Below are positions 50,827 through 54,219 of a DNA stretch of 64,000 bases, piece by piece (the first letter of the stretch is position 1; each line of letters opens with the position of its first letter). Source of the stretch: Escherichia phage VB-EcoM-WM. The stretch lies in the sequence record PQ014731.1. One strand, 5' to 3'. The position numbers and the translations under genes are program-made. Below the pieces are notes generated by a model. It did not search any database. It worked only from the letters and a program-made list of their open reading frames with translations, and was not told where the DNA came from.

Positions 50827-53800
50827 ATGAGCATGTGGTCGTTCGATTTTGAGTCATCCGGTTTGCTGGAAGACCCAGATCTTTATTATCACTGCGGTCT
50901 GTTTAAAGAGTTGAATAAGAACCGTTTTATGCTGTTCCTTCCTCTAAATGACCGCACACACTACTCCGAGGAGGATATAGAAAAGGCTAAGAACTTCATT
51001 CTGGCAAAGAAAACTCTTTATAAAGATTTTGAAGTTCGCATAGCAGATTTTTCGGAGTTGGAAGGTTGGCTTACAGGAAATTCTGACTGGTCACCAACAG
51101 CTTTGAACTGCCATAACTGCTACAGTTATGACTTTATGCTGATGGAAAGATTATCCGGTATTCATTTTGATATGTTCCGTGATCCTAAATGTATGGGGAC
51201 TATCAACGACCACCAGGTTAACCTGTTTGATACGTTGGCAATGAGCCGAATCTTGTGGCCTGATCGCCCTTTACCAAAAGGTTGTCCGGACTCTGTATTC
51301 AACCCGGTTACTAAGAAAATGCAGCCTGTTGGTCCTCACGGCCTTATGGCATGGGGCTACGCTCTTGGTAACCAGAAAGTTCAAATTGATGACTGGCGCG
51401 ATCTTCCGCTGTGGAAGTATGTGGATCGTGTATTCGAGGACGTTATCATCCAGGAGCTGCTCTGGAAAGAGCTGGTAGCGGAATCAAAAGGTGTATTCTA
51501 CGGCAAATCTGACATGCAGAACTTTATGTACGATCCTGCCAAAGAGAAGCCGAAAGGGTTCAAGAAGATCACCTGGAAGAACGCATTACGCCGAGGCATG
51601 CTGCAGCACTTCCTGATGGAGCTGCAGGCCCGTCAGGGTGTGTATTTCGACATAGACGGGGCTATTGCTTTACGTGACCGCTGTGATGCGTGGATGAAAG
51701 AGATCGCTGATCGTGTTGAACCTCAACTTCCTTTAAAAGAGTTATCAATATCTCAGCGGCCTAAATTCCCTGAAAAGCCGTTCAACCAAGAGGGGACAAT
51801 TTCCAATAATGGCTGGAAATGGTTAAAAGATAAGCTTGGCTATCCTGTAGACATGAGCGCTTTAGAGTTCAAAGCCCCACCTAAGCGAGCATTTACCTCC
51901 ACAGGAGATGTCAGTAAAATGGGGATAAAATGGTGTGAAGAGATGGGCTGCAAAGACCCAGACAAGATGGCTGATTTCTTGAGAGGTTATATTAAGGGCA
52001 CCTCCACACCACAACCTTTACCTAAAGAGCTGATGGATCAGGCAATAAGCGATCTGCAGCAGAAGCGAATGCCTGACTGCAAGATACCTATGAAAATCAG
52101 CAATCAGGACGATATTAAGCGATACCTGATCAGTGCTGGTTGGCTTCCGACAATGTGGAGAACTAAGGATGTAACTAAAGACAGCAAGAAGAAAGCTCTA
52201 CCTGATGCAGATGTTGATGCACGAGTATATGCATATATGGACGAGCTTTTAGAGTCAGAGTATTGTGACCTGATTATCAACTTCTGGAACAAAACTGATG
52301 CTAAGTTCCAGACAACCGTGCACAAGTTCCGAAGCTTTCCTAACTCCGAAAGGATTAAAAAGGAAGTATTCGGGAAAATACGTAGAAAAGCCAGGGCACT
52401 TATTACTTCTCCGCAACTGAAAGATACGTTTGGACACCTATGTCCGAATCTTGAAAAATTGAACGGAGAGATGGCTAAAGATATCGTCTTGTGGTTATCA
52501 TTGCGAAACCGCAGATCGGTCCTTGATCCAATTAAGGAGGATAAGGTTGATACTGGTCTTCTTAATCACCCACGTTTGAAGATTGACCATAAGCTTCCTG
52601 CTAAAAGCTCTGGATTAACAAACACTTCCAGACAGAAACACAGTATTTGTGCAAACATGCCTAAACCATCTCCTAAAGTGGTTATGGGTAAAGAGATGCG
52701 TAGTCTGTGGGGTGTTCCTCCAGGATACTTTGAGATCGGTATTGACGGGTCCAACTTAGAGCAGCTTATCGGGGCTTGGGGTGCCTTTGAGTTCGACAAC
52801 GGCTTGTATTATGATGTTGTAAGTAACGGCGATGCACACTGCTATTCAGGAGATACACAAATTCTCACAGAGAAAGGGTGGATAAGGTTTGAAGATCTTG
52901 ATCAGGAAACGCAAGTGTTCCAGTACGATCACAACACCTCGTCAATGAGCCTTGTTACTCCACTAAACTACGTTAAGCGGAGTTATTGCGGGGATATGTA
53001 TCATTTCCACAACAGCAGCGTGGATTTTATGGTTACAGATCAACACAGAATGCTGACTGTTGACCACAGAAGCAATAAATTGTTTGAGGATTTGGCAAAA
53101 GATCTGAAAGCAGGCAAAGGGTCTAATTCAGGAAGAAGGTTTATCCATGCGGCAGAGTTTTATGGGAATACAACCTTATCCCCTGCTCAGATTAATTTAC
53201 TTATTGCTATCCACGATGACGGAAACTTGCATACAAATAAAGATGGAAGCAGCGTATGCAGGGTCCAGGTTGGAAAGGGGAGAAAAGTTGCAACGCTTTT
53301 GGATACCTTTTCTGCTCTAAATCTTGATTATACAGAGCAGTGCGGGAAAACAACCAAAGGAGGTTTGCTGGCAAGAAGATTCCAATTCCACGTGCCGTCT
53401 TGGGTGTTTAAGTTTTTGGACAGCAACAAAGATTTCACCTATAGTTTGATGGATCTTGATAAAGAATCTAAAAACCTGTTTATAGCTTCTTTATCTAACT
53501 GGGACGGGTGGGTATCTTCCGAAGGTGGAAAAGTTATTTACTACTCCCAGGCTGAGTGCAGGAAGAAATCTGTAGAAGTGGTGTCTGCCTTGGCTACTCA
53601 GTGTGGTTTACGGAACAACACGGTGACAATTCACAGAGAGGGTCGTGCCGTGCAGCACAGAATTACAATTGGTAGCAAACAGAAAGCAGGTTTACTAACA
53701 CTGGATAAAGATCTTGTCGAGGTGAGTAATTCTTTGGTTTATTGCGTCACCGTTCCCTCTGGAGCGATTATTGTAAGGAGAGGTGGCAAGGTTGCAGTGT

Positions 53801-54219
53801 GCGGCAATTGCAATAACGCCAAAGCCTACTCTGCTGTAGCAGGTAAGGAAATTTCCCGTAACGATGGTAAGCCTGTCACGTATGGGGTTATGTACGGGGC
53901 ACAAAAAGATAAAGTTGCAGACATGCTGGATATCTCTCCAGAGTTGGGGCAAAGGGTAATCGATGCGCTTTGGGATGCCAACCCCGGTCTTAAGGGGCGT
54001 AAAGAGGATCTGGAGAAATTCTGGGAAGCAACTGGTAAGAAGTTTATCTACTCTTTTGATGGTCATGCCATCTGGACCCGATCTAAACACTCTTTACTTA
54101 ATGCATACCAACAAAATGGCGGTGCATCGTTGTGTGATTTAGTTGGGATACTCATGCACCACCAAATGGTGAAGCGTGGGTGGTACGATGAAGGTGTTCG
54201 TCGTATTATTTATTACCAT
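50827..54219 (+). CDS. family A DNA polymerase (T7-like), exon 1, including an in-frame intein
   Basis: N-terminus MSMWSFDFESSG...YHCGLF...DTLAMSRIL parallels the T7 DNAP exonuclease domain; motif A region GIDGSNLEQL...GDAH; O-helix SRNDGKPVTYGVMYG after the intein; ORF stops one codon after ...IIYYH, before the HDE motif. Confidence 0.8.
52840..53808 (+). other. intein (323 aa) within the DNA polymerase
   Basis: Starts CYSGDTQIL (block A), has TDQHRM (block B), ends LVYCVTVPSGAIIVRRGGKVAVCGN followed by Cys; flanks align contiguously to T7 DNAP GDIH-TKNQ...RDNAKTFIYGFLYG; penultimate residue is Gly, not His. Confidence 0.7.

Follow-up and report, generated by a model that had tools for sequence, protein, structure and literature searches.

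The DNA polymerase gene of Escherichia phage VB-EcoM-WM (sequence record PQ014731.1), examined here within a stretch of 64,000 nucleotides referred to as the window, is interrupted at positions 52840-53808 by 323 codons, and raises the question of what this insert is, whether it is mobile, and, if it is removed by protein splicing, which of its cysteines carries the upstream polymerase fragment (N-extein). From sequence comparisons we conclude, with considerable confidence, that it is an intein, active and mobile, in the T7-like polymerase of a Vequintavirus, and that a two-motif LAGLIDADG endonuclease interrupts its Hint (splicing) domain. Insofar as the features that define inteins and two-motif LAGLIDADG endonucleases are open to computational examination, the insert possesses them; the intein family to which it belongs is known, its site in the polymerase is a recurrent one, and this member had so far gone without annotation.

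All features reported lie on the plus strand. The insert translates to 323 codons without a stop, begins with CYSGDTQIL, carries TDQHRM at residues 66-71, and ends with VAVCGN directly before a Cys codon. BLASTN alignments with the intein-less phage Bas58 (HeinrichReichert) extend to 52839 and resume downstream, defining an in-frame net insertion of exactly 969 nucleotides with junctions at 52839/52840 and 53808/53809; GDAH-QNNAE of the intein-less allele becomes, in the window, GDAH and CNNAK separated by 323 residues. A 160-nucleotide probe spanning the junction found it uninterrupted in 109 phage records, all Vequintavirus relatives, and tblastn located the insertion in only six database records (phages Mangalyan, JEP1, 241Ecol014PP, NHEP1, YP-6 and EPFV3-03/2025), at 91-92% amino-acid identity. 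These six records (OR449013, MT740314, OR062943, PQ511146, OQ376695 and PV435126) bear no intein annotation, the gene being named DNA polymerase, DNA/RNA polymerase or hypothetical protein. Base composition gave no foreign signature, with a G+C fraction of 0.40-0.47 throughout. A conserved polymerase insertion domain, the alternative envisaged in the original prediction of this element, was rejected because the 109 relatives lack the insert; the coordinates that prediction had assigned to an intein proved exact to the base (by the open codons, the 969-nucleotide length and the junction against Bas58), and its block A (CYSGDTQIL) and block B (TDQHRM) were found at the start and at residues 66-71.

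The host gene belongs to an rV5-like E. coli myovirus: a 4.6-kb query comprising the polymerase gene matched 124 phage records at 92-97% identity, nearly all of them Escherichia rV5-like phages. A primase-helicase gene precedes the open reading frame (ORF) at 50827-54225, whose product is a T7-like family A DNA polymerase. Its N-extein (50827-52839), polymerase residues 1-671 ending in VVSNGDAH, was delimited from the ORF list, from 98% nucleotide identity to intein-less Bas58 up to 52839, and from alignment with T7 DNA polymerase. The codon at 53809-53811, Gln in intein-less alleles, specifies the +1 Cys, the predicted nucleophile of the C-extein; the first part of the C-extein (53809-54219) runs from the motif B/O-helix region to RIIYYH of motif C, where exon 1 ends, as judged from the T7 alignment and from phage NHEP1, which has no intron and in which this part runs directly into exon 2. 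The spliced flanks align contiguously with T7 DNA polymerase (E = 2.4e-13), NGDAH-C standing opposite NGDIH506-T507KNQ, in agreement with the flank assignment (GDIH-TKNQ) first proposed, and the insertion point falls between the equivalents of His506 and Thr507. In T7 DNA polymerase, His506 contacts the incoming nucleotide, and Arg518, Lys522 and Tyr526 belong to the O-helix. Arg518 is reached about 12 residues downstream of the insertion point, which places the latter at the N-terminal boundary of the O-helix region; the proposed location "at the O-helix" holds for that boundary and not for the helix interior. Distantly related PolA proteins, at least 12 besides this one, have inteins of the same family at this site, following D-x-H, which makes it a recurrent intein site. 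Three metagenomic PolA proteins (P0009, P0011 and P0050) contain two back-to-back inteins there; the first of each pair lacks Cys1 (having Ser, Lys or Ala at position 1), keeps the Cys at block F position 4 (F:4), and has as its +1 Cys the Cys1 of the intein directly following.

The Hint domain is divided between the two ends of the insert. Its N-terminal part (residues 1-104; 52840-53151) includes Cys1 of block A (52840-52842) and block B, T66-D-Q-H69-R70-M71 (53035-53052); phmmer aligned residues 6-91 with the AceL NrdHF intein (PDB 6ZGQ; E = 7.7e-6), placing vtdqHRM against vspnHRM, and the intein N-terminal model TIGR01445 covers residues 1-73 at a sub-threshold score. Its C-terminal part (residues 286-323; 53695-53808), assigned from the sequence, comprises block F, V-Y-C302-V-T-V-P306 (Cys302 codon at 53743-53745), and block G, V-A-V-C321-G322-N323, with no His between Cys302 and Asn323. 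Cys1, T66-D-Q-H69, Asn323 and Cys+1 represent the N-terminal Cys/Ser, T-x-x-H, C-terminal Asn/Gln and +1 Cys/Ser/Thr expected of an intein. A Hint fold was found, the structure having been modeled with AlphaFold2 from a 30-sequence family alignment (mean predicted local distance difference test score, pLDDT, 93.7; predicted template modeling score, pTM, 0.91). The C-terminal blocks could not be aligned to 6ZGQ by phmmer, and their correspondence was established by structural superposition and visual comparison with the residue numbers in PMC7891396.

Homologues of the insert are numerous and reside in unrelated proteins. In exhaustive, profile-free HMMER searching, the number of representative proteins retrieved was 7008 at a cut-off of E <= 1e-3, one of them a 100% identical copy, and 1906 at E <= 1e-10; full-length homologues in other proteins were found down to E = 1e-54, numbers that exclude chance. 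By tblastn, 505 phage records contain matches that cover 80% or more of the length of the intein, with 25-30% identity. End-to-end homologues with 25-37% identity sit in Nampt, in the alpha and beta subunits of ribonucleotide reductase (RNR), in ThyX, PhoH, mycobacteriophage primase, nucleotidyltransferase and other PolA proteins, and those in unrelated proteins are all bounded by Cys1 and by Gly-Asn followed by Cys, Ser or Thr. A word-indexed protein search with the intein gave zero matches at E <= 1e-3, against the 7008 of the exhaustive search, a gap in sensitivity for divergent inteins.

Statistics for the family were compiled from 159 extracted, aligned full-length inteins representing many phage proteins. 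Residue 1 (A1) is Cys in 155; B:7 is Thr in 147 and Ser in 12 (Thr66 in the window); B:10 is invariably His (159/159; His69); B:11 is Arg in 86; and B:12 is Met in 52, the rest having mostly other aliphatic residues. At F:4 every member has Cys (159/159), and the Pro that follows x-x-V after it is present in 140. The penultimate residue (G:6) is Gly in 143, the C-terminal residue (G:7) Asn in 139 and Gln in 19, and the +1 residue Cys in 104, Ser in 43 and Thr in seven. The sequences thus describe a large, mostly phage-borne family with Cys1, T-x-x-H-(R)-(M), an invariant F:4 Cys with V-P after it, and a C-terminus of Gly-Asn or, in some members, Gly-Gln, block F being devoid of His; Gly-Gln termini had been noted earlier in related RNR inteins (PMC3556154). 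The window intein conforms in its F:4 Cys-x-x-V-P, its Gly at G:6 and its lack of His from F:4 to the C-terminus. The Gly at the penultimate position (Gly322) that drew attention to this element is real, and the description of Gly-Asn as atypical does not hold: with Gly in 143 of the 159, this ending is a hallmark of the family and not a peculiarity of the window copy. More telling, and overlooked in the original prediction, is the invariant Cys302, at the position of the class 3 nucleophile.

Between the two parts of the Hint domain lies a LAGLIDADG homing endonuclease domain (residues ~105-285; 53152-53694). Helices predicted at residues 115-127 (IAIHDD127G) and 208-221 (SNW221D222G223) are about 100 residues apart, each with an acidic residue and then Gly, and constitute motif helices ending in LLIAIHDD127G (residues 115-128; 53182-53223) and ASLSNW221D222G (residues 208-223; 53461-53508). 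Their C-terminal ends are the two LAGLIDADG-like stretches initially put forward as candidates, now placed in a two-motif endonuclease domain. The middle domain of the AlphaFold2 model matches I-DmoI and I-Tsp061I, and in the family alignment D127, K149 and W221 are invariant while D222 and G223 reach at least 90% conservation. Model and conservation together support the LAGLIDADG assignment, with the catalytic acidic residues predicted to be in place.

The window intein is a distinct lineage: its nucleotide identity to the six database copies is 88%, whereas these share at least 98.7% with one another. Between window and database copies, the rate of synonymous substitution (dS) over the whole intein is 0.54, and the ratio of nonsynonymous to synonymous rates (dN/dS) is 0.08; by region, dS and dN/dS are 0.350 and 0.054 for the N-terminal Hint part, 0.573 and 0.079 for the endonuclease domain, and 0.931 and 0.124 for the C-terminal Hint part. 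Since the flanking polymerase sequence has a dS of only 0.13-0.22 (dN/dS 0.00-0.014), intein and host gene appear to have had partly separate histories. A flank haplotype of ~48 nucleotides (53809-53856), CNNAKAYSAVAGKEIS as opposed to QNNAEAYTKVAGREVS in the intein-less allele, is linked to the intein in seven of seven intein-bearing alleles (CNNAKAYS·VAGKEIS in translation). It differs at many positions from its intein-less counterpart, the 5' flank being essentially unchanged; intein-less Bas58 has its many differences in this tract, with 96-98% identity elsewhere. Such a pattern is expected from co-conversion during homing with simultaneous loss of the recognition site, and the tract is probably a co-conversion tract that also alters the homing site. 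Purifying selection (dN/dS 0.08, the endonuclease included) and the shared haplotype together argue for an active, homing element.

Several observations weigh against this conclusion. Curated intein hidden Markov models (HMMs) score the element below their cut-offs (Pfam Hint_2, 15.6 bits against 28.4; TIGR01445, 18.1 against 24.5); no Pfam LAGLIDADG model matches the window sequence, whose first motif has HDDG in place of the QADG of the family consensus; only ~5% of sequenced relatives have the intein, which fits recent invasion or weak homing; and, as regards the chemistry, the F:4 Cys is more conserved than Cys1 and is the residue with which the closest solved relative initiates splicing. 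Curated models of the Pfam, NCBIfam and PADLOC type yielded nothing beyond the two sub-threshold matches, and among 30 relatives eight match Pfam Intein_splicing (PF14890) and five LAGLIDADG_3 (PF14528). We attribute the low scores to divergence of the family and not to absence of an intein: the failure of intein HMMs that the original prediction held would speak against it was nearly realized, and the identification nonetheless stands. Matches to PHROG profiles of the PhoH, RNR and ThyX families were discarded as reflecting inteins embedded in those profiles and not function, and weak Adeno_Penton_B and Fur-like matches were dismissed as noise.

Sub-threshold HMM scores, and the missing canonical penultimate and block-F His, might indicate a non-splicing insertion domain, or a dead intein, inside a polymerase that is still functional or else dispensable. 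We judge this highly improbable, in that all needed residues are there (Cys1, Thr66, His69, Cys302, Asn323 and Cys+1), purifying selection is strong, homologous elements occur in unrelated enzymes, and the insert adjoins the deoxynucleotide-binding His of an essential single-copy polymerase in seven viable isolates; moreover, relatives missing the same histidines splice efficiently (PMC5050341, PMC7891396). Appreciably less remote, although still doubtful, is a splicing-competent intein whose endonuclease has decayed, leaving a fixed passenger that has lost homing. The lack of Pfam LAGLIDADG matches, the departure of the first motif from its consensus, and the rarity of the element among relatives (six against 109) would all accord with such decay; yet dN/dS in the endonuclease domain is 0.079 across a dS of ~0.57, D127, D222 and K149 are conserved, and two diverged intein lineages occupy the same site with the same flank haplotype. 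The excess of intein dS (0.54) over that of the flanks (0.13-0.22), suggesting separate histories of intein and host gene, and the toxicity in E. coli of the endonuclease of a homologous intein (PMC5050341) also oppose decay, and we retain the active mobile intein as the preferred interpretation.

We infer that this intein splices from the essential nature of its host gene, its dN/dS of 0.08 and the splicing of homologues, two of which are especially instructive. The intein of mycobacteriophage Bethlehem gp51 (RDF/metallophosphoesterase; 317 residues against 323) is homologous end to end (BLASTP E = 2e-12 over residues 1-323), sharing Cys1, T-x-x-H-R, a block F of V-W-C-L-R-V-P, a T-G-N end and a LAGLIDADG-type middle domain; it differs in its host protein and phage group, in having only ~22% identity, and in having Ser at +1 and Thr at G:5, both Cys in the window. 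Within an MBP-intein-GFP reporter its splicing, with the Gly-Asn end, is essentially complete, replacement of Gly316 by His leads to precursor accumulation and slow splicing, and its endonuclease is the toxic one mentioned above (Kelley et al. 2016, PMC5050341). The naturally split AceL NrdHF intein is the closest solved structure; its Ser-x-x-His-Arg-Met, Cys124 at F:4, and lack of block-F and penultimate His correspond to Thr66-x-x-His69-Arg70-Met71, Cys302-x-x-Val-Pro306 and Gly322-Asn323 of the window intein. Cys124 is followed there by a Pro-Gly kink (Hoffmann et al. 2020, PMC7891396) and, as shown by mutants C124A and C124S, is absolutely required as the sole initiating nucleophile of this proven class 3 intein, which has Ala1; Arg69 (B:11) hydrogen-bonds the C-scissile carbonyl, R69A slowing splicing, and Gly145His abolishes activity (PMC7891396). 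The window intein keeps this block-B Arg, as Arg70. Unlike it, AceL NrdHF has Ala1, is class 3 and split, is accompanied by a separate GIY-YIG gene and has no LAGLIDADG domain embedded in it, has Thr at G:5 and Ser at +1, and interrupts RNR beta. The mechanism of a Gly-Asn terminus, offered in the original prediction as something still to be tested, has in fact been tested in both relatives (PMC5050341, PMC7891396), and the splicing experiment suggested there has in effect been carried out on homologues.

More distant comparisons help to place the window intein. Canonical class 1 LAGLIDADG inteins (PI-SceI, PI-PfuI, PI-PkoII and TliVMA) share 10-15% identity with it and have, by contrast, Asp at F:4 and a His-Asn C-terminus; several possess an extra DNA-recognition region, the window intein being smaller at 323 residues. 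Class 3 (WCT) inteins such as MP-Be DnaB and Msm/Mch DnaB-1 resemble it in the F:4 Cys and in phage association. Class 3 inteins are, however, defined by the absence of an N-terminal Cys/Ser/Thr nucleophile, and the window intein has Cys1, as do 155 of the 159 family members; of the triplet Trp (B:12), Cys (F:4) and Thr (G:5) it has Met71, Cys302 and Cys321, only the Cys agreeing. It falls outside the class 3 definition at two of the three signature residues and in possessing the nucleophile, although AceL NrdHF, proven class 3, is itself M-C-T (PMC7891396).

A splicing pathway can be proposed, each step of which is drawn from homologues. After folding of the 1248-residue precursor, Thr66 and His69 would put the His(-1)-Cys1 bond under strain and Cys1 would form a thioester; the N-extein would then move to Cys+1, with Cys302 at F:4 coordinating, or possibly relaying, the acyl group. 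Asn323 would cyclize without a penultimate His, Arg70 of block B polarizing the scissile carbonyl in the manner of AceL NrdHF Arg69, and an S-to-N shift would give a 925-residue polymerase with Cys where intein-less relatives have Gln. During co-infection the endonuclease would cut intein-less polymerase alleles, and repair would copy the intein together with the ~48 nucleotides of 3' flank.

Formation of the first thioester by Cys1, aided by Thr66 and His69, is the account best supported by our analysis. We weighed against it a class 3-like or relay mechanism operating despite Cys1, in which Cys302 would be the obligate nucleophile and form a block-F branched thioester, by direct attack on the N-terminal junction or by accepting the acyl group that Cys1 had taken up; transfer to Cys+1 would follow. 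It draws on the greater conservation of the F:4 Cys (159/159) than of Cys1 (155/159), and on the members P0009, P0011, P0050 and P0127, which lack Cys1 yet keep the F:4 Cys. We nevertheless hold this mechanism to be unlikely: 97% conservation of Cys1 and the universal presence of Thr or Ser at B:7 argue for the N-S shift of class 1, the signature Trp (B:12) and Thr (G:5) are replaced by Met71 and Cys321, the literature separates class 1 inteins with an F:4 Cys, a polyphyletic set, from the class 3 clade (PMC3196547, PMC4031507), and the homologous Bethlehem RDF intein is treated as class 1 (PMC5050341). An obligate acyl-carrying role for Cys302 is viewed with similar or slightly greater reserve, and a shade more speculative still is the suggestion that the window intein and the ~97% of the family bearing Cys1 are natural intermediates between classes 1 and 3, with Cys302 the obligate carrier through a block-F branched thioester and Cys1 feeding Cys302 or partly redundant. 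Were that so, AceL NrdHF (Ala1) and the few Cys1-less members would be recent derivatives, and the phage "progenitor" state from which class 3 inteins have been proposed to arise would survive today in this family.

Four cysteines (Cys1, Cys302, Cys321 and Cys+1, with codons at 52840, 53743, 53800 and 53809) converge on the predicted splicing center, and Cys at G:5 is found in only 24 of 159 relatives. Given these four residues, redox-sensitive maturation of the polymerase is conceivable and might occur; disulfide-bonded precursor conformers were seen for the homologous RDF intein by Kelley et al. (PMC5050341).

The same gene contains a group I intron of 842 nucleotides (54220-55061), situated between the His and Asp codons of motif C (IIYYH-DEYQLQV). 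Rfam RF00028 matches over 54210-55011 with 29.6 bits (E = 2.2e-5), below the gathering threshold of 50, and the exact boundaries were taken from NHEP1, whose polymerase gene is intron-less and forms 1248 contiguous codons including the intein. Exon 2 (55062-55415) extends from DEYQLQV to GRNWGDCH and the stop codon. With both intein and intron in one gene, its expression requires both RNA splicing and protein splicing, and the mature polymerase, once both are removed, has 925 residues. Within the intron lies an HNH homing endonuclease ORF (54360-54866; PHROG 59 HNH endonuclease, E = 6e-38; Pfam HNH_3 weak). The full intron with this ORF occurs in the window, in Mangalyan and in Bas58, whose polymerase coding sequence is annotated as a two-piece join; JEP1 has an intron of ~330 nucleotides from which the HNH ORF is precisely deleted, and 241Ecol014PP, YP-6 and EPFV3 have a still shorter, ORF-less intron of ~270 nucleotides. 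This polymorphism among close relatives provides a natural series for the gain and loss of introns and their endonucleases. In addition, 16 records carry the label "Campylobacter phage", with C. jejuni given as host, and share 96% identity with the polymerase genes of these E. coli vequintaviruses; they look like cases of mislabeled hosts or of coliphages contaminating the submissions.

As the intein is unlabeled in seven phage genomes and missed by curated HMMs, the mature 925-residue polymerase is mis-described in them. Its recognition brings an easily manipulated E. coli phage into a family whose tested members come from a mycobacteriophage and an Antarctic metagenome, and makes naturally available, for homing crosses, intein-plus, intein-minus, intron-plus, ORF-less-intron and intron-minus alleles of one essential gene. 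Relatives have answered the question posed by the Gly-Asn terminus, and the mechanistic interest of the element now lies in the choice between Cys1 and the invariant block-F Cys as bearer of the N-extein.

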